DNA of 32,000 bases from Halogeometricum borinquense DSM 11551 (GTDB taxonomy: Archaea > Halobacteriota > Halobacteria > Halobacteriales > Haloferacaceae), in the NCBI RefSeq assembly GCF_000172995.2, contig NC_014729.1, positions 630,001-662,000 of the forward strand. The letters run 5' to 3'. Made by a program: the position numbers and the translations under genes. Each line of letters begins with the position of its first letter. Position 1 is the stretch's first letter. The notes beneath the pieces are model-generated. The model was not told where the DNA came from and made no database searches. It saw nothing but the letters and a program-made list of their open reading frames with translations. Positions 8,137 through 24,770 of this stretch are shown one piece after another.

Positions 8137-8541
8137 TTAGGCTGTCTCCGCGACGGGCTCTTTGAGTTCGAGAAGATAGCCGAACGGATCTCGAACGTAG
8201 ATTGCTGGGGCTTCACCAGTCGCACCGTAGGGCGTCCCTTCTCGCTCGATAATGACGCCCGCGTCCTCGAGTTCCTGCTTGACGTCTTTGATATCCTCGT
8301 CCAGGATGATTGCGAGGTGATCGAAGTTCTCCCGTTCGGGGTGGACGAACTCGTCGGTCGGTCTGATGTGGATGATCGTGTCTTCTGTGAGCCGGAAGTG
8401 GAAAATCGGTGTCTCACCCGCTTCGTACTCGTCGAACCCTTCGAGCGGGAACCCGAGGTGGCCTTGATAGAATTCGATTGCGTGCTCGATCTCGTCCTCC
8501 GGAATTCGGAGGTGAACGTGGTCAATTTGTAGTGCGTTCAT
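8137..8541 (-). CDS. VOC (glyoxalase/bleomycin-resistance/dioxygenase) family protein
   Basis: Met59 of ORF 8137..8715 (MNALQIDHVHLRIPED...HLAIILDE...VRDPFGYLLEL) gives 134 aa with the paired beta-alpha-beta-beta-beta VOC pattern and metal ligands (H..H, E). Confidence 0.85.
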   Translation of the reverse strand: MNALQIDHVHLRIPEDEIEHAIEFYQGHLGFPLEGFDEYEAGETPIFHFRLTEDTIIHIRPTDEFVHPERENFDHLAIILDEDIKDVKQELEDAGVIIEREGTPYGATGEAPAIYVRDPFGYLLELKEPVAETA

Positions 8542-11157: not shown

Positions 11158-11342
11158 TTTTTGATTGTCATTATCTCGTTAGTGGCCCCGACTAGGACCC
11201 ACCATTCAACTGGTTGTCACGTTCGTTGGTCGTCATAGTATTGCGCAAATTGTATGAACTGCTCGTGGATACTCGCGTGGCTTCCTACCCATCGATCCTG
11301 GAAGTCATCAATGTCTTAATAGTTTGAAACCACATCCCGATG

Positions 11343-12143
11343 GGCACTGTCTAGTTAGTGACCTCCTCAACCGGCGTTCGTCCGTTGAGCGCTTGATGCA
11401 GTCTCTAAAAATCATAGTATTGCGCAAATTGTATGATCCACCCGTGGACGCTTCCGTGACTGCCCACCCACGAATTATGGAAGCGCTCAACTCGCATTTT
11501 AAGGATATGAAACCACTTTTCGATGAGGTTTCGCTCGACGTAGTCAAGCAGACCGCTCAATCCTAATCGAGAGAGGGCAGTCTGATGGCCGTAGCCATCA
11601 ACCAGAAACACAGTATCTGAGAGATCATGTTTCTCGGAAAGTCGATGGAGAAACGCAGCAGCTGGATCGGTACCATGTCGTCCAAACAATTCGACATCGA
11701 GAATCAGCTTCGTCTCGATGTCTATTGCAGCGTACAACCAAGACCATTCGCCATTGATTTTGACAGCGGTCTCGTCGACCGCAACCCGCTTCGGCTTCGC
11801 CTCAGGCGGGGTGTGACCGCTGTCAGCCAGTCGATGTACCCACTGCCAAAAAGCTTGATGAGAGCGTTCAACGCCGAGTATTCGAAGAATTTCTTTTGTC
11901 TCTCTAAGTGAACACCCGGTCGCGTGGAGCTGGACGGCGAACACCCTGACGGGCGTCCTCAGAACGCTTCGCGTTCTGATGGGCTGCACGAGAGCTCTGC
12001 TCTCGTGAACGTCGCCGTCCGCTCACGCTCCCAAGTTTCTTCTAAATCCGTCGCAAAGCATTCGCTGAGCAGGTCTGCGAGCATCTTCCCAAACTCACTC
12101 AACGACCTGCTCGTTCCTCAAACTGGCTTAACTAGACAGTGCC
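11343..12143 (-). mobile_element. IS6-family insertion sequence, 801 bp, with 15/16-bp terminal inverted repeats
   Basis: IRL ggcactgtctagttag (11343-11358). IRR ttaactagacagtgcc (12128-12143). Flanked by TCCCGATG (11335-11342) and TCTCGATG (12144-12151), an 8-bp target duplication with one mismatch. Encodes an IS6-type DDE transposase (DETAVKINGEWSWLYAAID). Confidence 0.85.
11351..12084 (-). pseudogene. IS6-family transposase, apparently disrupted (N-terminal frameshift + premature TAG)
   Basis: ATG 12084 opens MLADLLSECFATDLEETWERERT..., which is in a different frame from the main ORF (11405..11989, GTG start). In-frame TAG at 11405-11407 is followed by RLHQALNGRTPVEEVTN and the stop at 11351-11353 inside the IR, which is the usual IS6 C-terminus. 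Confidence 0.65.
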
Positions 12144-12650
12144 TCTCGATGAGATTTCGCTCAACGTAGTCAAGCTGATCGCTCTATTCTAATCGATAGA
12201 TATTAGTCTGGTAGTCGTAGCCATCAACAAGAAACACAGAGTCAGAGAACTCCTGTTCTTCCGAGAGTCGATGGAGAAATGCAGCAACCGAATCAGTATC
12301 ATGTCGTCCAAACAATTCGACGTCGAGAATCAGCTTTTTCAGTGTCTACTGTATTCGCTACCCAAGGCCACCCGACATGATTTTGACAGCGGTCTCGTTA
12401 GCAACAACCCGCTTTGGCTTCGCCTCAGGCAGTTGTGATCGCCGCCAGCGCCAATGTACCTAGCGCCAAACTGCCTGATGAGAGCGTTCAACTCCGAGGG
12501 GGCGGACAATTTGTATTGTTTCTCTAACTGAAATTCGGTCGCGTGAAACTGGACGGCAAACGTCCAAACGAATGTTGTTGCCCACCCCACACTCCAGATC
12601 TTCTAATAAACCCGCCGCAAAGCACTGCCTGAGAGATCTGCGAGCGCCAT
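12144..12650 (-). pseudogene. transposase remnant of the older IS6 copy
   Basis: Homologous to the inner copy, but with multiple stops and indels. The only open piece is 12339..12590, ...TFAVQFHATEF... versus VRVFAVQLHATGC. Its 3' part continues at 11199-11342 (...DRWVGSHASIHEQFIQFAQYYDDQRT). Confidence 0.65.
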
Positions 12651-12739
12651 GATCAATTTAATCAATGACCTACTCATTTCTCAAACTGGCTAACTAGACA
12701 GTGCCTGAAATTTCAAAATATTTGGGGCCTGACATCCCC

Positions 12740-13573
12740 CTATGTGGTGATCCGACAAATAATATCGCCAGAGATTGTACATTTGAGAACAAGTTCTCGT
12801 GAATAGGAACAACAGGATTCAACAATTTTTTCAGACACTTCAACTGCTTCACCAGATCTCGGGCATTGAGGAACGAATGGCCGCAGAGAGATTAGAAGCT
12901 GCCCCTTTTGGTCCTTAGGAATATCATTCCACATGGGGAGAAGCCTCTCAAGAACTGAAGCTCCAGTTAGATCTGCGAGCATCGCCGATTCAGAGATCCA
13001 GTGTGCTATGACTGTGTCTCCAGTGGTGACATACACGGTCCCCCCAGTGTTGGAAACCTGATATTCCCCTTCAACGATTGGATATAGCTTCCTTAGAAGT
13101 TCACTGGACAACTCGTTCGTATTCGAAAGGGTATCGCGCCACAATTGCTCTGCCTCCGCGGTCAAACACAGGTCAGCAGAATCACTACAAGGCTCAACGA
13201 CATCATGCTCCGTTAAAAGGTCTTCAAAACTCGCAGATGGAGAGCCCATAGTTCCACCACTTCTCGCAGTCGAGTCATCGGATACGATAGCTCCACTGTG
13301 GAAGCGCCTGAGAAATGATGTTGGGAGATATTTCTTCGTGAGTCCAGGGGTTTTGGGGACTAAATATCCTTTCTGCCAGACCCTGGCCGCACCGAGAACC
13401 GCAAACAAGATCGCAATCAACGGACCGACAAACCAAAGTACAGCCGAGATTGTGATCGTAATGGAAATATTGAGTAGAGTACAGGGAGTACAGCGGTTTT
13501 TCCCAGTATATTCGGGGTCTTTTATTGATTCGAGGTGTTCATTCAAGGTATAGAAACATATGGTAGGAAACAT
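12740..13573 (-). CDS. membrane protein, hypothetical (N-terminal CxxC + two TM helices, Cys-rich C-terminus)
   Basis: 277-aa ORF. NRCTPCTLLNISITITISAVLWFVGPLIAILFAVLGAA forms a hydrophobic hairpin. The soluble domain ends in CPRSG...CCSYS...C...C. No family recognised. Confidence 0.6.
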   Translation of the reverse strand: MFPTICFYTLNEHLESIKDPEYTGKNRCTPCTLLNISITITISAVLWFVGPLIAILFAVLGAARVWQKGYLVPKTPGLTKKYLPTSFLRRFHSGAIVSDDSTARSGGTMGSPSASFEDLLTEHDVVEPCSDSADLCLTAEAEQLWRDTLSNTNELSSELLRKLYPIVEGEYQVSNTGGTVYVTTGDTVIAHWISESAMLADLTGASVLERLLPMWNDIPKDQKGQLLISLRPFVPQCPRSGEAVEVSEKIVESCCSYSRELVLKCTISGDIICRITT

Positions 13574-14907: not shown

Positions 14908-15252
14908 ATGACTGAGGACCATCATCCCCTGAGAGGGGTAATCTTGTACTGGACCCTCGGCCAACAGCCTCAACAGAAGTTGAAGGACCGAATGTTTTCC
15001 GGCAACTACAGCCACTACTCAACTAAAGACGGTGAATTCACCGACACAAGTAGGTTGAAAACAGGAGAGTACCTGATTATCGAAATCAGCGAAGAACAGT
15101 TAGAGGCGTCCAATGAACCGGTAGAATCCGAATGCCCTGAACTCGAAACCCTCCCAGGAAGCGAGCTCGAACAGTTCTGTCTCTACCGAGAAGAAGACGG
15201 ATACTGTACAACACTCGGGGAAACCTGCGTCCTCTTAGAACCCGATGACTGA
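14908..15252 (+). CDS. hypothetical acidic protein (114 aa) with C-terminal Cys cluster
   Basis: ORF preceded by an AT-rich intergenic region. The stop overlaps the next gene by 8 nt (15245-15252), suggesting an operon. No family recognised. Confidence 0.55.
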   Translation: MTEDHHPLRGVILYWTLGQQPQQKLKDRMFSGNYSHYSTKDGEFTDTSRLKTGEYLIIEISEEQLEASNEPVESECPELETLPGSELEQFCLYREEDGYCTTLGETCVLLEPDD

Positions 15253-15658
15253 AGCACTCGAAAACCTCCGTGAGAAAGACCAGGTTGTACTCAACCAGAT
15301 AGACCAGGGTAACGACGACGTCCAGAAAATCACCGAAGCCACCACTCTAGAAAACTACCACGTCACCTACGCCTTCGAAAAACTCGAAGATCTCGGGCTT
15401 CTAAAGGTTTCAAAACCTGAAGGCACCGTCGAACGGATAATCAACGGTCAAAAACGAGTCTTCCAACATCCCAAACAAGCCGCTCTCACCGAGAAAGGAA
15501 GACAACACCTCGAACAATTAGAGACAGACGGCTTTGACGAGTATGAAAACCTAAGCCACCGAGAACTCGTGAAAAAAACCCACCAACTCGAAGCCGATAT
15601 CAGACAGCTAGAAAACTCGCTCAATACCTTCAGACAGCAAGTCGTGGAAAAACTATAG
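15245..15658 (+). CDS. winged-helix DNA-binding protein with C-terminal coiled coil
   Basis: DQVVLNQIDQGNDDVQKITEATTLENYHVTYAFEKLEDLGLLKV fits an HTH plus wing of the MarR/TrmB-like type. The C-terminus (HRELVKKTHQLEADIRQLENSLNTFRQQVVEKL) is heptad-like. Confidence 0.6.
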   Translation: MTEALENLREKDQVVLNQIDQGNDDVQKITEATTLENYHVTYAFEKLEDLGLLKVSKPEGTVERIINGQKRVFQHPKQAALTEKGRQHLEQLETDGFDEYENLSHRELVKKTHQLEADIRQLENSLNTFRQQVVEKL

Positions 15659-15661
15659 GGA

Positions 15662-16111
15662 TTAAACGTCGGTCTGGTATGGCTCCTCTTTAGCTCTCTG
15701 TACGTCCTCATCCTTCTCAATCTCGGAGCCTGTACGTCCCTTATTCCTCGACGCAACGTTTCTCATCGCATTTTGTTTCTCGTCGAACCCGTCCTTGAGT
15801 TTTGAGAGTCCTTTTGACAACCCCTGAACAAACCTCTCTCCCTTCCCGGTAATCCGGAAACGATGGGGCTCCCTGTCCTCGTCAACATCAGCCATCTCCA
15901 AGTCCTCATACGACTGCATCCTACTCGAAAAACCGGGGTCGAGTGGACCGTGCTCTTCCCTTCTGAACGACCAATCATCAGAGTCAGATTTCGAGTTTCG
16001 GTACTGGTATAGCGACTTGTGAAACTTCAACCGTCCTTCAATCTCGCCGTCGAACTCGGATAGCATCATCAACCGTGTATGTAACTCTTCGTCTCCAATT
16101 TCTTCCTTCAT
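15662..16111 (-). CDS. small acidic protein, winged-helix-like (pattern reminiscent of DUF4065/Panacea-SocA); fourth gene of the candidate defence operon
   Basis: 149 aa. GRLKFHKSLYQY...WSFRREEHGPLDPGFSSRMQSYEDLEMADV...HRFRITGKGERFV. The start ATG overlaps the stop of the upstream ATPase gene (ATGA at 16108-16111). Confidence 0.6.
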   Translation of the reverse strand: MKEEIGDEELHTRLMMLSEFDGEIEGRLKFHKSLYQYRNSKSDSDDWSFRREEHGPLDPGFSSRMQSYEDLEMADVDEDREPHRFRITGKGERFVQGLSKGLSKLKDGFDEKQNAMRNVASRNKGRTGSEIEKDEDVQRAKEEPYQTDV

Positions 16112-17817
16112 AGGAAGTCACCTAATTTGGTTTGAAGCGGTTCCCGTTCCAAGATCTCCACTTGATCAAACCGGGAGTCAATCGAGGTATTAGAGGTGGT
16201 TACAATCATCTGCTTGTCCAAAGATAGAATATACTCTAGGGCTGCATCTCTGTTCTCTTCCTCCTGAAGGTTCGAAAACGGCTCATCTAAAACAATAGTA
16301 TCCCACTCGATAACACCGTTTTCAGTTGCAAAACGACTCAGGGTACAAGCAAAGGATATATTCAGTAGGTGAAATTCCGAGCCACTCAGATTACCTCCTC
16401 TATCATACTCGCGCAGGTTGTTCCTACCAGGGAATTGAATTCGACCCTCCTCGGAAATACTGATTCCAAGCTGCAGGTTTGAATTCATCTGGTTGTACGC
16501 TTCTTCCCAAGCCTCACTGAACTCCTGAATACCAGCCTCAAAGCTTTGTTCAGTCAGTTCTTCGACCATCTCAGAGGCATGGTTATGTGCTTCAGAATAT
16601 GCCTTAGACTTCCGGTTGATCTCCTCAACCTTCTCCTCTAGACTTTGTCGGTCAGATTTGAGTTCGTCCAAACTGCTAGAAATAGATTCTAACTCTTCTT
16701 GGACGTGGTCCTGAATCTGCTGGATATTGTGGTCATAGTTGTCCAGCCTTCGTTTGGTGAATCCGTCTAACTCTTCGAGCTCGGGTTTTTCCTCTTTTAG
16801 TTCGCCAATCTGGTTAGAGACTTCGTCCCGCTGGTCTTGCAGTTCTTCAATCTCTTCTTTCAGCTCATCAAGCAGATCATCGGACTCCTCGATTTTCTGG
16901 CTAAGACGCTGCTTCAATCCTTCCAGAGAGTGGTTCCGACCACAGTAAGGACAGTAACCGCGTTGAATCCTGTTCTTTGCTTTCTCAGTTGTAATCCTGC
17001 GGTCACAGGTCGGACAGACAAAATCATTGACAGCCTCAGCAATAATATCGTTAACCTCGGACTCGTAGTTCTCCTGTTTCCTCTTCTTCCGATGCAGTTT
17101 TCGAAGACGCTTACGCAAACCCTCCTTTTCCTTGAATAACTCATCAAGCCTGTTCTCCAGTTCTTCATCTCTCCTCAACTGTTGGCTGAGCTTAGCCAGT
17201 TCACCTGATTCAATCTGTGACTCAAGTCGGTCGTACTTCTCTTTCTGTGACTCTAAATCACTGACCTGTCGGTCAAGATCGGACTTCTCCTCAGAGAGCC
17301 GTCTTTTCGTATCCTTCGTCTCTACAACGAGTTCGCTTAGTTGTTCCTCGGCATCTTCCAGCCGGGAAATCCTCTGCTCCAGCTCTCGGTTGGTAACGCT
17401 CCGAATCAGTTTGGTTCTTTGACCTCGACTCAACTCGTCCAAAGGCATCTTACCAATATGAGAGTGGACAAAAAGAGATTTCAGCAGAGTAGTATCCCCG
17501 AGGTCCTCGGAGAAGGCTTCAGAAGCATTCGAGCCATCCAGTGTTTCATCTTCTCGTTCGTACTCTGATTCTGGGTTGCCTCGGAAGAATCGGCTGTCGT
17601 TCGTGAATTCGAGTTCAACCTCGTTTTGTCGACCGGTCGCTAAATCGATAGTGTGCTTTGCTCCAAGAAGATTGTAGAGAATAGCGTTGAAAGTCAGTGT
17701 TTTCCCGGTTCGGCTTCCTCCCCTGAGCAGATGAGAATCACTGCTTACTGATTCGATTTCCATGCCTCGGTGCTCGCCGCTAGCGAACTCTTCGATGTTC
17801 AGGGAGTCAATCTTCAT
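16108..17817 (-). CDS. SMC/Rad50-like ABC ATPase with a mid-coiled-coil 4-Cys zinc hook
   Basis: Walker A RGGSRTGKT (aa 32-40, nt 17698-17721). About 230 aa of heptad-rich, charged sequence lie on each side of CPTC-x17-CPYC (aa 268-292, nt 16942-17016). ABC signature LSGSE (aa 477-481). Walker B/D-loop TIVLDEPFSNL (aa 507-517). Confidence 0.8.
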   Translation of the reverse strand: MKIDSLNIEEFASGEHRGMEIESVSSDSHLLRGGSRTGKTLTFNAILYNLLGAKHTIDLATGRQNEVELEFTNDSRFFRGNPESEYEREDETLDGSNASEAFSEDLGDTTLLKSLFVHSHIGKMPLDELSRGQRTKLIRSVTNRELEQRISRLEDAEEQLSELVVETKDTKRRLSEEKSDLDRQVSDLESQKEKYDRLESQIESGELAKLSQQLRRDEELENRLDELFKEKEGLRKRLRKLHRKKRKQENYESEVNDIIAEAVNDFVCPTCDRRITTEKAKNRIQRGYCPYCGRNHSLEGLKQRLSQKIEESDDLLDELKEEIEELQDQRDEVSNQIGELKEEKPELEELDGFTKRRLDNYDHNIQQIQDHVQEELESISSSLDELKSDRQSLEEKVEEINRKSKAYSEAHNHASEMVEELTEQSFEAGIQEFSEAWEEAYNQMNSNLQLGISISEEGRIQFPGRNNLREYDRGGNLSGSEFHLLNISFACTLSRFATENGVIEWDTIVLDEPFSNLQEEENRDAALEYILSLDKQMIVTTSNTSIDSRFDQVEILEREPLQTKLGDFL

Positions 17818-18322
17818 CGGTTATGTCGTACAATTTTACTGAGCTTTTAACTACCTGTCGGAGATTCCGATATTCCCGATAACTGAATAAGTAAATCACG
17901 ACCAGCGATCCAATCAACGAAAAAACGGCATACGTCAAGCCATACAAATCATTCACGGCAAATGGCAGAGAAACCCCGATCAACAGACCAGAAAGAACCG
18001 TTACCAAGTGGCGGTGTGCTTTGCCATCCATTCGATCTATACGGTCCTGAGTATCCTGATCAGCATCCCAGTAGAACTCATCATCTCCCGTTCGTCCATC
18101 GATGCGGTTGAAACTCTCCTCAATAACATCACCCGCGAAAAACTCCATCAAACCATCATTGAAAACCACGCTAAGGAAAACCAGGAAAACAGAAGGAACA
18201 CCAGCAGCAAAAAGGTGAACAGGCTTGCTCAATTCGAAAGACGACAAGTAGAGAAAACCAGCGGCATATATGAATAGAAACAGAGCACCCCAACTCTGCT
18301 GAATCTGCTTACCAAGCTGCAT
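17807..18322 (-). CDS. four-TM membrane protein with acidic central loop
   Basis: 171 aa. Hydrophobic helices WGALFLFIYAAGFLYLSSF, LFAAGVPSVFLVFLSVVF, LVTVLSGLLIGVSLPFAV and TYAVFSLIGSLVVIYLFSY. Loop: DGRTGDDEFYWDADQDTQDRIDRMDG. The stop overlaps the ATPase start by 11 nt. Confidence 0.7.
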   Translation of the reverse strand: MQLGKQIQQSWGALFLFIYAAGFLYLSSFELSKPVHLFAAGVPSVFLVFLSVVFNDGLMEFFAGDVIEESFNRIDGRTGDDEFYWDADQDTQDRIDRMDGKAHRHLVTVLSGLLIGVSLPFAVNDLYGLTYAVFSLIGSLVVIYLFSYREYRNLRQVVKSSVKLYDITDED

Positions 18323-18401
18323 AAAACAACTATCAACATCAAAGAGTTAGATAACTTTCCCTCCACCGGAGTGAATCTGACACTTCGACAGTTAGTATAA
18401 T

Positions 18402-21400
18402 TCAGTCCCAAGCGTGGAAGTCGCTTTCAATCTCCCCAGTGAATTCTCCATCTTCATTAAGTGAATAGACACCTCTGATCTGGCTCTTACCGAACTCATT
18501 GCCGCTAATAGTTCCTGTAGATATTCTTTTCTCGCCTTGCACAAGCCATACTATGGACAAACCTGTTTGAGTTAGTTCCTGTAGGAGGTTGCTATCTCCT
18601 CCGATCATTGTCAATGAATTCACCCTGTCGAGCAGTCCATCTGACTCAGAAACGTCGGCAATCCGAACTGGGTTTGTTGACTGGTTCATGAACATCTTTT
18701 CACCAACAACCCATTCCATTTCAAGTAGTTCCGAGAGATATGGTGATGGCACGAACATTCCATACGATTCGTCTATCGAGCAGTCATACTCGGCTTCCCA
18801 ATGGAGGTCGATTATTGTTTTTTCGGTGTCAACAGGAGATCCTCTGATAGCTTGACCGGCGTCCTCTAACCAATCATCAACAACTGGGTGCCATGGGTAC
18901 TCCCCTCTGAAGACCTGAGTCAGAGTGGCTAACCGAACTAACCCACTTTGAATACTATCGCTCGAAACCCAGTTCTGTCTAACCCATGCCAGCAATTCTG
19001 ATTTGTCTTCTGCATCTACGATAACGGAATCTATCCAGAAGACAATCTTCCGCTCGGCATCAGACTCCTGACTCTCTTTTTCTCCCCAATTGTATGTTCC
19101 ATGCAGCGGTAACCATGATTCCTCATCGATAGATATTTCCAACAAATTGGGTATCTCAGGAAACTCTTGGTCATCTGAGACCCACCCTTCAGTTCCTACA
19201 TCACCAATACGAAGACTGTAATTCGGGACTTGATCAATAGACAGATCAGATTCTGGTTCAGGATTTAGTACAGAGGGGTCTATGTTTCTATCCCAGTTTG
19301 TCCAGGGACCACTATAGGGGGTATCCGTTATTGAGTCGGTGAACTCGCAATCATCCGTTATCCAAGCGACGAACTCGTAGTAAGCAATCCACTGGTACTT
19401 TTTACTGAATTTCTCGGGTTTCCGAGTCCCCCTTCCTGCTCGCAACCTCCAGTTCACGCACTGGTCGAATTCACCAAACGAATCTGGATGCCAACCAAGG
19501 TCAAACACTCTTTTCGTAATCCATCTAAGAGCCTCGTCACCAGAGATGTCATAACCGTGTACATGAGTGCTGTCACTATTCGTTCCAACAACGTACCGAG
19601 CAAAATCACTGAAACCGCCTCCCTCAAAGTCAGATCCCACTAAACCAATCCAAAACTTGGATTCAAGATCTGTATCTGCATCTTCCAACCGTTCTGTTAC
19701 CTGATCTCGTAACTCATCCGGACTTGGAATACCGATACTGAACGAGCTGTCATACGGCGGTCTAATCTTATCAAGGTCTACACTGTAGGTATCAGACTTG
19801 TCGTTTGCCAGTTCAATGATTCCCCTAGCATAGTCTCTTGTCAGGATATGTGGCGTTGGATCACCATCCTCAAACTCCAGTTCAAATACAGTGTCAGCAA
19901 TGTCTGTTACCGAGTTCTCCGTTCTGTTTCGGAGAACCCCACCGTAGGCTGCTGCATAAACTCTCTCCAAAATGTATGGATCGTTCACACCTCGGAAGCG
20001 TTCAATCAAGTCAATATAGATCTCAAGGTCGGAACCTACGACATTGACTATCGCCTTGGTAGATCTATCCCGTAGAAATCTGTTGGGGCAGCAAAGGAAC
20101 CAAGATAAGGTAACCGAGATCAACCGCTTCAATTCGATTGACTCAATTGGATTGTTCTCCAGAGAGAAACCCCAGTTAACCAATCGAAATACCTCGGAAG
20201 TATCTTCACCGAATTCTTCGTGCAGGAACCTAGACCAATCGTGGTCTCTTCCACGAACACCATATTCCATCAGGATGCCGTGGAGATATTCTGTGTTTAA
20301 TGGATGCTCTGAACTCGTTGCTAACGTAAGGAGAACCCGCCAGAGTTCATATAGTTCATCTAATTCCCCGATTTCGCTCCAAAGATAATCCGTGACTTCT
20401 TGACTAATATCGCCATTCGAATCGATCAGTGTTTGGGGATCTCTCCAACCCAGACTCTTAATGAACGGAATCAAAATCGCCTCTGAATCAATGAAATCGA
20501 ATATTTCGACGTTATGTTGCTCAGGAAGATGGATCGATAGCGCTTGAATCAGTCCAGAATACCGGAATGGGTCGTCAAATACCTCCTGCAACTCATCACT
20601 ATCGGATAGAGCATCCCTGAAATCACCGTCCACGTAGAGGTCGAGATACTGCTGTGCCAACATATGGTCTGCAAACTTATCATACGAGAATCTAACCGCT
20701 TCTCCTGCATCCTCATCAAACTGGACAACCTCTGAAATCACACCCTCACTCAAGATATGCCTGTATAGACTCTCTGGGTAGCGTCTTCCTGGTAGAAAGT
20801 CATTGACGATCTGCTTTGCTTTATCCTTGGGCAAGCGTTTGGTGCCGCCTCCCTCTTCAGCCATTTCACGAGCCAGCGCTTCAACAGCAGTTCTTACCTT
20901 GTTATCGCTCGGATCGTACTGTAGCTCCCGCCAGAGCCGTTCGTGGACACCATCAATATATCCTTCAAATATCTGGCTAATGCCTTCAGGACCGTGAGAA
21001 ACCCGGCTCTTTCCCTGTCTCTCCAAGTTCTCACAGAACAGCTTCAAAAACAACGGGACCTGAAACTCTTGTTTCAGAACCGGGATCGAGGAATGGTCTA
21101 TCCCGTGTGCGTCGAAGAACTTTCGAACAGCTTCGTACTCAACTTCTCTGAAGCCATAGTGTCTGGTTTCGATGAGGTCGTCCTCAGTACTTTCGAATAC
21201 TCGGTTTTCATAGCCGGTGCGGCAACTAACACAGATCCCGATATGTGGGTAGTTCTCTAACTTCCGTAGCACTCCTGGAAGCTGTCTCGACCACATCCGT
21301 GGATCAGAACTCTCATTCAAAGCGTCGATCATGATGAGAGATCGAACACCACGTGATTCTCCGAGAGAATCTAGGGCACCTAAGAACTCTTCAGTACCAC

Positions 21401-22601
21401 AAGTCAATCCAAACCGTTCGATAATCTGCGTCCAAATATTCCTGTTATAGAAGTTCTCGCCGAGCAACAATACAGTCGGGTAACCTTCCTCAATTCGGTC
21501 TTTAGCGACATTGCATAACAGGTGTGTTTTCCCCATCCCTGCTTCCCCAAGCAACTTCAAAGCAGGGTCCTGAGCTACCTGCAAATCCTTCGATTGAACA
21601 TATCTTTGAAAGCTGTATACTTCACTCTGGACTTGACGGAAACGATTCAGGGTATGTTTTTCTGTTGTACCTACTGAATCCTGTTCTTCCTCTGCCTGTT
21701 CTTTGAGAGTTCGAAGCTCCGGTTCCAGTGAACTGATCGCTTGCTCTGCCTGTTCAAGAGTATCAACTAACTCTTGAATAGGGATGTCTGTATCCACCTG
21801 TTCAATATCTTGGAGAAGGACTGGTATCTGTTCTATTGCATCGTGTAACTCATGAAAAGATTCCTCATCAGCCTGCTTCAACACCTCAATACTTCTCTGG
21901 GTGAACAAGCTACTTGCTTCCTCACTGAGAGCATCTAAACGATCTTTAACGTCCCCAACGAAAGCTGGGGTTCTCCCTAATGGCTCAAAAATATCCGATG
22001 CTTTGATATCAACGTGAAGCTCTGGTGTGTACCGCTCACTAGCATTAGAAATCGTTTCTTCTAGCTCTGACCGTAATTTGGATCCAGTTAGTTGGTTTGT
22101 GTTGAACCAGAAGTAGAGCCGACCTTTGTGCTTCTCCTTACTTAGGAGTTCTAATAGTCGGGATTGACCCCAGAAAACGAACTCCACATCCATGTCACGT
22201 TCATCCGCCCACCTTTCCCATTTCTCCTTCCGGTCATTGTACTTCTCAAGTGCGGTCTTAACCCCTTTACGCGGGCTGTGAGGTCGGTCGCATGGGACAC
22301 ATACAAAATACTTGGTTAGTCCTGGATAGGTGTCTAGTGCTTTTTTAACAGATCTGTCGACTTGTGATAGGCTGCTATTATCGATTCTATCTACGTATTT
22401 TGCTTGCCAACCCCATACATCTCCTTCCGGGGACTCCCATTTGCATTCGATTCCTGCGTCTGGGTCGCCAATACGGGTATATTTCCATGAACCAGATATG
22501 TCTTCAAATTGGTGTGCAATCTGGCTACAGAGTTCCTCGAAGCCCTTCCTGCGGGAAGTTTCAACCGGTCTAATATTGTTAAAGTTGATAGAAATGCTCA
22601 T
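18402..22601 (-). CDS. 1399-aa Mrr-like PD-(D/E)xK nuclease + NACHT/STAND-like P-loop NTPase + large C-terminal region
   Basis: N-terminus: GFEELCSQIA...IGDPDAGIECKW...WGWQAKY (helix Glu, Asp, Q-x-K). Walker A LLGEAGMGKTHLL (aa 350-362, nt 21525-21548). Walker B SLIMIDALNES (aa 421-431, nt 21312-21338), of the hhhhD[GA]LxE NACHT type. Alpha-helical repeats follow, then a Trp-rich C-terminal domain of about 450 aa (KYQWIAYYEF). Confidence 0.85.
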   Translation of the reverse strand: MSISINFNNIRPVETSRRKGFEELCSQIAHQFEDISGSWKYTRIGDPDAGIECKWESPEGDVWGWQAKYVDRIDNSSLSQVDRSVKKALDTYPGLTKYFVCVPCDRPHSPRKGVKTALEKYNDRKEKWERWADERDMDVEFVFWGQSRLLELLSKEKHKGRLYFWFNTNQLTGSKLRSELEETISNASERYTPELHVDIKASDIFEPLGRTPAFVGDVKDRLDALSEEASSLFTQRSIEVLKQADEESFHELHDAIEQIPVLLQDIEQVDTDIPIQELVDTLEQAEQAISSLEPELRTLKEQAEEEQDSVGTTEKHTLNRFRQVQSEVYSFQRYVQSKDLQVAQDPALKLLGEAGMGKTHLLCNVAKDRIEEGYPTVLLLGENFYNRNIWTQIIERFGLTCGTEEFLGALDSLGESRGVRSLIMIDALNESSDPRMWSRQLPGVLRKLENYPHIGICVSCRTGYENRVFESTEDDLIETRHYGFREVEYEAVRKFFDAHGIDHSSIPVLKQEFQVPLFLKLFCENLERQGKSRVSHGPEGISQIFEGYIDGVHERLWRELQYDPSDNKVRTAVEALAREMAEEGGGTKRLPKDKAKQIVNDFLPGRRYPESLYRHILSEGVISEVVQFDEDAGEAVRFSYDKFADHMLAQQYLDLYVDGDFRDALSDSDELQEVFDDPFRYSGLIQALSIHLPEQHNVEIFDFIDSEAILIPFIKSLGWRDPQTLIDSNGDISQEVTDYLWSEIGELDELYELWRVLLTLATSSEHPLNTEYLHGILMEYGVRGRDHDWSRFLHEEFGEDTSEVFRLVNWGFSLENNPIESIELKRLISVTLSWFLCCPNRFLRDRSTKAIVNVVGSDLEIYIDLIERFRGVNDPYILERVYAAAYGGVLRNRTENSVTDIADTVFELEFEDGDPTPHILTRDYARGIIELANDKSDTYSVDLDKIRPPYDSSFSIGIPSPDELRDQVTERLEDADTDLESKFWIGLVGSDFEGGGFSDFARYVVGTNSDSTHVHGYDISGDEALRWITKRVFDLGWHPDSFGEFDQCVNWRLRAGRGTRKPEKFSKKYQWIAYYEFVAWITDDCEFTDSITDTPYSGPWTNWDRNIDPSVLNPEPESDLSIDQVPNYSLRIGDVGTEGWVSDDQEFPEIPNLLEISIDEESWLPLHGTYNWGEKESQESDAERKIVFWIDSVIVDAEDKSELLAWVRQNWVSSDSIQSGLVRLATLTQVFRGEYPWHPVVDDWLEDAGQAIRGSPVDTEKTIIDLHWEAEYDCSIDESYGMFVPSPYLSELLEMEWVVGEKMFMNQSTNPVRIADVSESDGLLDRVNSLTMIGGDSNLLQELTQTGLSIVWLVQGEKRISTGTISGNEFGKSQIRGVYSLNEDGEFTGEIESDFHAWD

Positions 22602-22782: not shown

Positions 22783-23715
22783 TTAGAGGTGAAGTGGTTT
22801 GATGGCTTGTAGGTATTCTTGTTGTGCTTGGTTACGGTCGATGCGTGTGTAGATGTCTATGGTTTCTGACTCGGAGTCGCCTCGGATGTATTGGAGGATG
22901 TGGTCGGGCATTCCTTGGTTTCTCATGAGGGTGGTGAAGACGGTTCGGAAGGTGTGTGGTGTGAATTTTTTGTGGAACCGTGTTTCGCCTTCTTCCATGA
23001 CCCCGGTTTTAACGGCTGCCTCCCTGACTTTCCGCCGGATTCTTTCCCGTGTTAGCTGGTTTCCGGTTCGACTGGAGGCAAACAGGTATTCCGAGGTGTT
23101 CTGGTCGATGAACTGGAGGCGTTGAATCATTCTCACTGTTTCATCGTCAACGGGTATGACGGTGGTTTTGCCTCCTTTCCGGTTGGTAAGCCGAATAAAA
23201 CCGTCTTCGAGCAGTAGGTCTTCGCGTGTGATGGTGAGTGCTTCTGTGACTCGGCACCCGGTTTTAGCGAGTACTACTGCCACGGTCTTGTCCCGCGGAT
23301 CATCGATAGCGTGAACAATCTTCTCAGCGTTTTCCCATGTGGCGCAGTCAGGTCGGTCGTGGATCTGCTTAGGAACTTCTTCGAGTACGACCGCGGCAGG
23401 GTTCCCGGTGATGTCTTCGTATCGGGGTCGTTTCATTGCCCAAGCGTAGAAGCTGCTGAGTGATTCGAGGTAGCGGCGTTTGGTGTTTTGTGCCAAGTCT
23501 CGTTCTACGAGTATTCTCAGGTACTGTTCAACGTGGTGTACTTCGACGTCTTCCGGGTCAAGTTCGGGGAAGTGTTCGTGGAAGAACCGTTGAAGTGTCC
23601 GGCTGTACTCATTGATTGTCCGATGGCTTCTACCGGTCGTGGTCTTGCTTGTAAGGAACTCGTTGATCGAGTCGTGCTTGTTCTCGAACCGGGTTTTGTA
23701 CCAGTCATCACCCAT
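22783..23715 (-). CDS. tyrosine recombinase / phage-type integrase (XerC/D-like)
   Basis: 310 aa. N-terminal SAM-like core-binding part (INEYSRTLQRFF...). Catalytic region with ...GCRVTEAL..., HKKFTPHTFRTVFTTLM (HxxR) and IDIYTR (nucleophile Tyr). Confidence 0.9.
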   Translation of the reverse strand: MGDDWYKTRFENKHDSINEFLTSKTTTGRSHRTINEYSRTLQRFFHEHFPELDPEDVEVHHVEQYLRILVERDLAQNTKRRYLESLSSFYAWAMKRPRYEDITGNPAAVVLEEVPKQIHDRPDCATWENAEKIVHAIDDPRDKTVAVVLAKTGCRVTEALTITREDLLLEDGFIRLTNRKGGKTTVIPVDDETVRMIQRLQFIDQNTSEYLFASSRTGNQLTRERIRRKVREAAVKTGVMEEGETRFHKKFTPHTFRTVFTTLMRNQGMPDHILQYIRGDSESETIDIYTRIDRNQAQQEYLQAIKPLHL

Positions 23716-24206
23716 TACTTGTCACCTCCTGAGTTGTGTTTCCAGCCTTTACCACGCCGGAACACCACCCTTGCTTCGTCTCCGAGTTTGTAGAGACCGG
23801 TCTCCAAGTCAAGACGAACCCTTCTCCGAAACTCCGGCTGCTTCAACAACTCTTCGAGAAGTTGGTCGAACGGAGTGTAGTTCTCAGACAGAATCTTCTC
23901 AACCAGTTCCTCATCGATCGTTTGAGTCTGGGAGGTTACCCTGTTGGATGACTGGCTTTCAAGCTGCTGCTCAAGCTCCTCAACCCTCTGCTGTAACTGT
24001 TCGACTTTTCGTTTGTCACCGAGTTTCAACTGACCTTGTTCTCGGAGGTACCGAGCCTCCTGAATCAAGTCTTGGAGGTACTGGATCATCGAGGTACCGC
24101 GCTCTTCGGCCTCTGCTTTCCACGTTTCTTTGTGGGTTTCCGGCGGGTAGAGCTTCACCAACGAAGTGTCATCACTGATGCCACTGGACGATTTCCAACC
24201 AGTCAT
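23715..24206 (-). CDS. small RHH-like / coiled-coil protein coupled to the integrase (possible excisionase or regulator)
   Basis: 163 aa. LVKLYPPETHKETWKAEAEERGTSMIQYLQDLIQEA has a strand-helix-helix pattern, followed by the heptad region VEQLQQRVEELEQQLES. The stop overlaps the integrase ATG (TAATG at 23713-23717). A paralogous fragment is present at 5150-5290. Confidence 0.6.
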   Translation of the reverse strand: MTGWKSSSGISDDTSLVKLYPPETHKETWKAEAEERGTSMIQYLQDLIQEARYLREQGQLKLGDKRKVEQLQQRVEELEQQLESQSSNRVTSQTQTIDEELVEKILSENYTPFDQLLEELLKQPEFRRRVRLDLETGLYKLGDEARVVFRRGKGWKHNSGGDK

Positions 24207-24284: not shown

Positions 24285-24770
24285 ATAGGGTTCGTCACTA
24301 CCGAGTGCCTAGTTCGGTTCGGAACGGTGCCGTCGTCATCGGCCACGCGGAGGTACCGGAGCCATCGTCAAGAGCATTCCGAGAGTCCGCTCGAACTACG
24401 TGTCAAACCCCGTCCGGCATCGCGTGGTTCTCCTCGTCGGCGAGATTGTGGAGCCGGTCCGTGCGGCCGGCGTCGAACTGTGACTGGCATTGAGCCACCC
24501 ACGACCCAGAGCGTTCAGCGGAGTTCGGCGTGTGGGCTGTGGTTGTCGTCTCGGGCGTCGGCTTTGGTTCGGTCGCGTGTCGGGTATGTGTGCTCACGTG
24601 TGAATGGTGTTGTGGGACGGTCTGATGGCTGTACGGCCGGAAAACAGTTATTCGCGTACAGATACGACCGACATGAGGTATCAACACATCCGAAGACAAA
24701 CATAATAAATGTTACTGTACAATTTGACGATTTGTTTCTCACCCGCTGGCGAGCGATAGAGTGGAGTGTT

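Follow-up and report, generated by a model that had tools for sequence, protein, structure and literature searches.

An Avs2 protein and a Lamassu-like gene trio as two probable immune modules in an integrase-flanked island of Halogeometricum borinquense

Background

Characterized archaeal immunity beyond CRISPR and restriction-modification (R-M) systems is scarce. Four successive minus-strand genes of Halogeometricum borinquense DSM 11551 raise the question of whether they constitute a further system of this kind, or more than one. They lie in a 32,000-nucleotide stretch of contig NC_014729.1 (positions 630,001 to 662,000; hereafter the window) and code, in the order in which they are read, for a 1399-residue protein, a 171-residue membrane protein, a 569-residue ATPase and a 149-residue acidic protein. 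An earlier examination of the letters and translations, hereafter the original prediction, had joined all four into a single undescribed defence system. Using profile searches, structure models and gene-neighborhood comparisons we correct this over-merged picture: the first gene codes for an already known protein, Avs2, and the undescribed part is a three-gene cassette (hereafter the trio) centered on an ATPase resembling LmuB of the Lamassu system. What survives of the claimed novelty is thus the three-gene cassette and not the four-gene form. We found no published description of it: the literature covered, which did not take in the ABC-3C classification (Krishnan et al. 2020), contains neither a named system combining LmuB with a membrane protein nor a haloarchaeal account of the trio. 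We put at about 0.6 the probability that the interval comprises two independent immune modules, Avs2 and the Lamassu-like trio, side by side in an integrase-flanked island of low guanine-plus-cytosine (GC) content.

An Avs2 protein at the head of the gene group

The four open reading frames (ORFs; Table 1) are packed as originally described: 79 nucleotides (18401-18323) separate the stop codon of the first gene from the ATG of the gene for the transmembrane (TM) protein, which overlaps the ATPase gene by 11 nucleotides (17807-17817), and the latter shares an ATGA (16108-16111) with the small gene. Two assemblies of H. borinquense contain this same locus, as do several read sets. The surroundings likewise agree with the earlier description of a cassette beside an integrase in an AT-richer, defence-type island, both in the Pfam match of the integrase and in the GC profile, which runs at 0.46-0.50 across approximately 9 kb to 23 kb of the window versus 0.57-0.64 in the flanks.

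In PADLOC searches the 1399-residue protein was recovered by the Avs2 profile PDLC02164 with E=0 (1443 bits), and a second Avs2 profile, PDLC02162, aligned with residues 4-1393 of the 1399, including the C-terminal sensor region (871 bits). The NCBIfam Avs2 model NF041813 matched with an e-value of 1.8e-280 and 933.9 bits, slightly under its 1000-bit equivalog cut-off, and the sequence of the solved Avs2 structure 9o4e_A with an e-value of 1.4e-136 (460 bits). These matches clearly point to a bona fide Avs2, an already named single-gene system. The profile searches thereby uphold the earlier recognition of a nuclease-STAND protein, its Mrr-like N-terminal match being weak, and at the same time place this protein outside any undescribed system.

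The protein comprises an N-terminal domain (residues ~1-170), a helical extension, a P-loop NTPase and C-terminal sensor repeats. The Walker A motif GEAGMGKT (G352-T359) contains the originally named K358, and residues 347-426 give weak Pfam matches to AAA_22, NB-ARC and NACHT. Residues 16-160 weakly match the N-terminal domain of an Avs4 model (NCBIfam, 1.4e-4), and a weak match to EcAvs4 (8dgf_A, E=0.06) aligns GWQAKY with GWQSKF; a D48...Q66xK68 motif is also present by inspection. The domain thus weakly resembles, and may be, an Mrr-like nuclease.

Avs2 proteins are known to act as single genes (PMC13601566, PMC11564622). They bind the viral large terminase through a TPR-like sensor at the C-terminus, whereupon they tetramerize and the N-terminal effector is switched on (PMC13601566; PMC11564622); in most of them this effector is an Mrr-like nuclease (PMC13601566). 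The window protein shares with them the full-length profile and solved-structure sequence matches and an architecture in three parts, with an effector at the N-terminus, the STAND NTPase in the middle and a sensor at the C-terminus. It differs in being a haloarchaeal member that falls below the NCBIfam equivalog cut-off, with a haloviral terminase only presumed as its ligand.

The remaining three genes recur as an autonomous cassette

With an alignment of ATPase homologs as the query, 20 haloarchaeal species loci and 30 metagenome loci were collected; 51 haloarchaeal loci were compared, and the neighboring ORFs of all trio loci were clustered into families. Only three families proved to be conserved across these 51 loci, namely the TM protein (~170 residues), the ATPase (~570 residues) and the acidic protein (~150 residues). 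Their order is constant, with stop and start codons that nearly always overlap or abut; the TM gene was found upstream of the ATPase gene in 43 loci and the small gene downstream of it in 40. The ATPase family is sparse (21 species matches in 185,579 species genomes) and sharply bounded, its members scoring at least 500 bits on the family profile and the next matches, Rad50 proteins, about 50 bits.

An exhaustive profile search with the small protein recovered distant relatives in Methanococcus voltae, Methanococcus sp. CF and Methanosarcina sp., and the same cassette is present in these methanogens and on one ENA contig. The methanogen versions code for a multi-TM protein of 176-194 residues, an ATPase of 601-619 residues and a last protein of 154-167 residues, again with overlapping junctions, whereas the ENA locus (L061) shows a variant orientation. 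As these genes are found as a group at more than 50 loci spanning three archaeal classes, their arrangement is far beyond chance. In the searches made the cassette was confined to archaea, and the IMG/VR viral contigs gave only spurious coiled-coil matches and no copy of it.

In about 46 of the 51 haloarchaeal loci, and also in the methanogens, the trio stands without Avs2. The five loci in which Avs2 adjoins it all belong to the clade closest to the window: Avs2 lies upstream in the window, L007 and L028 and downstream in L011 and L030, and in L008 an unrelated NACHT protein takes its place. The four genes are consequently not kept together, as a joint system had been expected to be; the trio alone is.

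Comparison of the Avs2 proteins themselves (N-domain regions window 22095-22601, L007:5382-5729 and L011:12344-12700) revealed that those of L007, L028, L011 and L030 carry an HNH domain (Cap4/SAVED-HNH-type) versus the Mrr-like domain of the window, and that outside the N-domain they are 62-67% identical to the window protein. This appears to be a clean example of effector swapping in Avs2 beside a stable neighboring trio.

The trio itself appears to be decaying in some genomes. In Haloferax larsenii (L012:9491-11988) the TM gene is split into ORFs of 79 and 101 residues and a truncated small gene codes for 85 residues, and in Salinibaculum litoreum (L026:8277-11593) the ATPase gene is broken after ~48 codons by an insertion of ~1 kb with a 330-residue ORF on the opposite strand.

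The junction between Avs2 and the trio

The nucleotide sequences place a break in divergence between Avs2 and the trio. The window is 80-88% identical to L007 and L028 across the trio, versus 68% across the body of Avs2, and the N-domain is unrelated (44% vs L007). From 18358, 36 nucleotides before the ATG of the TM gene, the window is homologous to L008, and this homology ends at the stop codon of the small gene. Approximately 40 nucleotides before this ATG are conserved in nine close-clade loci whichever gene stands upstream, and contain a block resembling a B recognition element (BRE) and TATA box, GGAAAG-TTATCT-AAC, 27-38 nucleotides before the ATG. The block fits a putative archaeal BRE/TATA promoter of the trio, and the position of its TATA-like hexamer at -32 to -27 from the ATG would imply a leaderless transcript. 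Of the suggestion that all four genes form one coupled transcription unit, the translational coupling of the last three stands; the gap before the TM gene holds this conserved promoter-like element. A T5 run lies 10 nucleotides past the last stop codon of the trio. Scans for Sigma-70 promoters and intrinsic terminators returned counts at or below the shuffled expectation, such models not being informative for an archaeon.

Consequently, the claim of one undescribed four-gene system falls on several counts at once: Avs2 is adjacent in 5 of 51 loci, occurs on both sides of the trio, has swapped N-domains, and is separated from the trio by the conserved promoter-like block and the divergence break. 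A two-module architecture is very probable.

Table 1. Features of the locus (positions are those of the window)
Feature	Position	Strand	Evidence or remark
Convergent neighbor: 137-residue winged helix-turn-helix protein (15245-15658) and 114-residue ORF (14908-15252)	14908..15658	+	outside the trio
Oligo-T run (T5), possible archaeal terminator	15648..15652	-	10 nucleotides past last trio stop
Acidic winged-helix protein, trio gene 3, 149 residues	15662..16111	-	AlphaFold2 and Foldseek
LmuB-like SMC/Rad50-superfamily ATPase, trio gene 2, 569 residues	16108..17817	-	PADLOC, AlphaFold2, Foldseek, alignments
Four-TM membrane protein, trio gene 1, 171 residues	17807..18322	-	four hydrophobic segments
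BRE/TATA-like element GGAAAG-TTATCT-AAC	18346..18360	-	kept in nine close-clade loci
Avs2 (AVAST type 2) STAND NTPase, 1399 residues	18402..22601	-	PADLOC, NCBIfam, PDB matches
Tyrosine recombinase/integrase	22783..23715	-	Pfam Phage_integrase 1.2e-24 and SAM-like N-domains; island edge; belongs to neither system

An SMC-like ATPase with a double CPxC apex

The 569-residue protein consists of an N-terminal head (residues 1-130), an antiparallel coiled coil (131-264 and 299-444) with an apex between its strands, and a C-terminal head. The AlphaFold2 model, with a predicted local distance difference test score (pLDDT) of 85.6, displays a split ABC head, an antiparallel coiled coil of ~135 residues and a cysteine-containing apex of low confidence. 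The Walker A motif reads GGSRTGKT with an invariant G38-K39, K39 being a residue already named in the original prediction; the signature LSGSE (477-481) has an invariant S478 and E481, and the Walker B motif IVLDE (508-512) an invariant D511-E512. The protein aligns with Rad50 at its signature and at Walker B; opposite the Rad50 H-loop ITHH the family has T-T-S (residues 536-541; 16195-16212, minus strand), with Q536 and T540 invariant; the methanogen orthologs are also without the H-loop histidine. The missing histidine would suggest slow or regulated ATP hydrolysis despite the canonical DE of Walker B.

At the apex the invariant pairs C268/C271 (CPTC) and C289/C292, both of the form CPxC, are spaced by 21 residues; the methanogen ATPases retain these two motifs together with Walker A. 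The zinc hook seen earlier is correct as to the cysteines C268 and C271; it is not the single CxxC then envisaged, there being two motifs and four cysteines per chain. A single zinc hook of the Rad50 type is excluded by these two invariant motifs.

The earlier reading of the protein as SMC-like agrees with both profile and structure searches. The PADLOC LmuB profile PDLC03859 is the best match of the window ATPase (1.5e-24) and the best PADLOC model for the family in every lineage, aligning end to end with the methanogen proteins. In Foldseek searches SMC, LmuB and Rad50 chains were recovered at similar scores, with the LmuB chains 9hqu_A, 9uxh_F and 9hqx_B at ranks 2, 3 and 6. When the family profile was run against the sequences of solved structures Rad50 heads scored best, and the PHROG match is SbcC-like. 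The NCBIfam Rad50 models score 27-42 bits against cut-offs of 700-1087, SbcC likewise stays far under its cut-off, and the model for the archaea-specific SMC-related protein (ASRP, NF045487) scores 54 bits against a 300-bit cut-off, covering only the coiled coil (145-423). Wadjet JetC gives weak coiled-coil matches (E about 4e-6), and JetA, JetB and JetD have no PADLOC matches. With Rad50-Mre11 and SbcCD the ATPase shares the ABC head, the antiparallel coiled coil and a cysteine-containing apex; it differs in its much shorter coiled coil and in having two CPxC motifs as opposed to one hook CxxC. Clustering of the neighbors revealed no conserved Mre11/SbcD-type nuclease and no kleisin/ScpAB-like partner near the trio. 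Membership in the Rad50/SbcC, ASRP, SMC or Wadjet families is thus excluded by the scores and the absent partners.

One metagenome locus (L047:18923-21631, plus strand) codes ~7 kb downstream of the trio for a second, 903-residue member of the SMC-like BLAST cluster, which may be a Rad50 or another SMC-like paralog.

The winged-helix and membrane proteins

The AlphaFold2 model of the small acidic protein (pLDDT 87.4) displays a winged helix with extra C-terminal helices, i.e. a MarR/PadR/YwgA-like fold, and its best Foldseek matches are 7yk3_D, from the DarTG complex, and winged helix-turn-helix (wHTH) regulators of the MarR/PadR type, in line with what had been proposed for it. One distant homolog from Methanococcus gives a marginal match to the LmuC profile PDLC03874 (8e-4). 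From its modeled fold the protein is probably a DNA-binding or adaptor subunit of the ATPase.

The first protein of the trio is likewise of the four-helix membrane type originally described and has four hydrophobic segments. Its central loop is acidic and conserved (TG..FY.D...ID..D.KA), and its C-terminal tail is basic; the positive-inside rule would place both on the cytoplasmic side of the membrane. No match to this protein was recovered in Pfam, NCBIfam, PADLOC or PHROGs, and it is a candidate effector or membrane anchor.

Comparison with Lamassu

Lamassu operons have the order LmuA-(LmuC)-LmuB (PMC12663957, PMC10586767). Their short LmuB proteins possess 0, 1 or 2 CxxC motifs, LmuC has an HTH-like fold and contacts both LmuB and DNA, and a clade without effectors exists within short Lamassu (PMC12663957). 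The system recognizes foreign DNA ends or replication intermediates (PMC12663957; bioRxiv 2025.06.23.660979), and its survey lists only seven archaeal genomes (PMC12663957). The trio shares with the short form or type II of Lamassu (also ABC-3C or DdmABC) a three-gene cassette around an SMC-like ATPase of ~570-620 residues for which LmuB is the best profile, a small partner whose modeled fold is of the HTH type described for LmuC, and a location in defence islands. As in some short LmuBs, its ATPase has two apex CxxC motifs; since these proteins carry between none and two, the double CPxC fits the short LmuB group better than the Rad50 hook. In contrast to Lamassu, the trio has a four-TM protein in first position, an ATPase with a canonical Walker B DE and no H-loop histidine, and a distribution that in the searches made comprises archaea only.

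The flanks of the trio vary between loci and are rich in recognized defence genes. The neighbors include Avs2, a NACHT protein, mad8/HerA-like ATPases, integrases and transposases, as well as Tiamat TmtA, type I R-M with HNH, HmaB/HmaC, type IIG R-M, Mokosh MkoA, Hachiman HamB, a DpdJ/BrxH-like helicase and PDC-S39. Near the non-halophile loci type IIG and type I R-M and SLFN/AlbA_2 genes are found. By analogy with Lamassu and from this context, the trio probably has an immune function.

Possible functions of the two modules and alternative explanations

By analogy with characterized Avs2 proteins, the C-terminal repeats of the window Avs2 would bind a viral protein that is conserved, usually the large terminase of a tailed virus, and its NTPase would drive tetramerization, bringing together and activating the putative N-terminal Mrr-like nuclease and aborting the infection. 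The trio ATPase would dimerize via its coiled-coil apex, the two CPxC motifs binding zinc, and together with the winged-helix subunit would recognize foreign DNA ends or replication structures in the manner of Lamassu LmuB and LmuC. Such recognition would change the conformation of the ATPase and hand the signal to the membrane protein, a conceivable recipient that is co-translated with the ATPase and occupies the gene position of LmuA. This protein could then depolarize or permeabilize the membrane as part of abortive infection, or else tether the sensor at the envelope. The comparisons show what the parts are, how they are conserved, that the modules are independent and that they sit among defence genes; DNA sensing, complex formation, a role of the membrane protein and immunity itself we infer, and the membrane-effector step is less likely than not. 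On a bolder reading, also short of an even chance, the trio would be a previously unrecognized, archaea-wide SMC-based immune system in which the detection of foreign DNA ends or structures acts directly on a membrane effector or anchor, and which in one haloarchaeal clade may cooperate with neighboring STAND nucleases.

Several observations weigh against the reading of two immune modules, one of them a Lamassu-like trio. The scores of the LmuB profile are modest (68-85 bits), and Foldseek does not separate LmuB from SMC and Rad50 heads; the ATPase is therefore best regarded as a divergent LmuB-like protein. The small protein has no match to a PADLOC LmuC profile or to a solved LmuC sequence, solved LmuC is absent from its top 50 Foldseek matches, and in the trio it stands after the ATPase and not before it, with no detectable homology to LmuC. 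PADLOC recovered no LmuA profile match in the trio or its neighbors, and no effector domain or LmuA C-terminal docking domain is detectable in the trio. The missing LmuA and the different gene order rule out a canonical Lamassu, so that the trio, although closest to Lamassu in its workings, is not a member of that system in its current sense, but a variant built on a divergent LmuB. The link to defence islands was drawn mainly from the large neighbors and has no background rate, and accordingly constitutes qualitative guilt by association. At the Avs2 junction, moreover, no oligo-T run comparable to the one after the trio is present in the window between the Avs2 stop codon and the start of the TM gene, and read-through co-transcription is therefore possible in this strain. 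Finally, the presence of a same-strand STAND gene directly beside the trio in six of ~12 close-clade loci (Avs2 in five, the NACHT protein of L008 in one) may exceed what clustering in islands produces. These last two points, together with the common strand and the 79-nucleotide gap, also favor a single new four-gene system, in which an SMC-like/wHTH pair would sense DNA and the STAND nuclease, the membrane protein or both would execute. We consider such a system highly improbable, as the trio stands without an adjacent STAND gene in most loci and in the methanogens, Avs2 occurs on either side of it with swapped effector domains, the trio has a promoter-like element of its own and a divergence break before it, and Avs2 works as a single gene (PMC13601566, PMC11564622).

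The trio might, on the other hand, be island cargo with a role in DNA maintenance or in the upkeep of mobile elements, for instance as a Rad50/SMC-like complex, tethered to the membrane, that repairs or segregates DNA or maintains integrated elements or plasmids. The Rad50 heads as its best solved-sequence relatives, the SbcC-like PHROG match and the weak ASRP match would agree with this, as would the frequency of integrases and transposases among its neighbors, the location of one locus on a Natrinema plasmid and the lack of a recognizable toxic effector domain in the cassette. Nevertheless, such a role is unlikely: neither an Mre11/SbcD-type nuclease nor a kleisin/ScpAB-like partner is conserved nearby, the Rad50 and ASRP scores lie far under their cut-offs, LmuB profiles outscore the other SMC-like profiles of PADLOC in every lineage, and the patchy distribution and hypervariable flanks dominated by known defence genes speak against it. 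It is improbable, too, that the trio lacks an effector of its own and serves as a sensor or accessory that acts in trans with whichever defence gene lies next to it (STAND, R-M, Hachiman etc.), for example as a modulator within defence islands, even though the cassette has no enzymatic effector, other defence genes are always immediately adjacent and the effector-less clade of short Lamassu (PMC12663957) offers a precedent. The partner genes are unrelated between loci, making a specific protein-protein coupling unlikely, and the output is more economically assigned to the membrane protein, which is strictly conserved and translationally coupled. We accordingly retain the reading of two independent modules, Avs2 and a Lamassu-like trio with its own putative output.

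Other features of the island

A 163-residue ORF (23715-24206, minus strand) abuts the start of the integrase gene and is kept with it in the H. borinquense assemblies; it has no significant family match, only weak coiled-coil-type ones, and may code for an excisionase or some accessory protein. A weak 12-nucleotide direct repeat (8396-8422 vs 24721-24747; common TTCTCACCCGCT) lies close to each end of the low-GC island, which spans about 8.8-24.3 kb, and could be a remnant of an attachment (att) site. The search for att sites in the window returned nothing beyond this repeat, and there are no tRNA genes in the window. At 11233-12706 tandem partial duplications of 79-191 nucleotides (74-89% identity, spaced by ~620 nucleotides) surround a DDE_Tnp_IS240 transposase fragment (11405-11989); these are insertion sequence debris within the island, and the gene calls in this segment differ between the two H. 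borinquense assemblies. A 277-residue protein (12740-13573, minus strand) is assigned to DUF8054_N/DUF8054_M in precomputed Pfam data, and our Pfam, PADLOC and PHROG scans gave no match to it at the thresholds used.

On the opposite strand, converging on the end of the trio, the 137-residue wHTH protein shows weak matches to Csa3/CARF-type C-terminal wHTH domains, and the 114-residue ORF is the leftover of a 640-residue HerA/mad8-like ATPase. Homologs of the wHTH protein and of this ATPase head an intact six-gene operon in L007 (12176-19183, minus strand) and L009 (12159-19126, minus strand), which codes for two HerA/mad8-like ATPases and three unknown proteins and is possibly another uncharacterized system, decayed in H. 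borinquense.

Conclusions

The trio is compact and sharply delimited, extends from Halobacteria to Methanococci, and is recognized by current PADLOC models in its ATPase only. If its function is indeed defensive, immune sensors derived from SMC/Rad50 proteins would extend to archaea with a small membrane protein in place of the LmuA enzyme, and the trio would be the first system of the Lamassu type to have its output at the membrane and its sensor and adaptor genes in reversed order. In that event, Haloferax and its haloviruses would offer tractable genetics for studying how an SMC-like sensor signals to the membrane.

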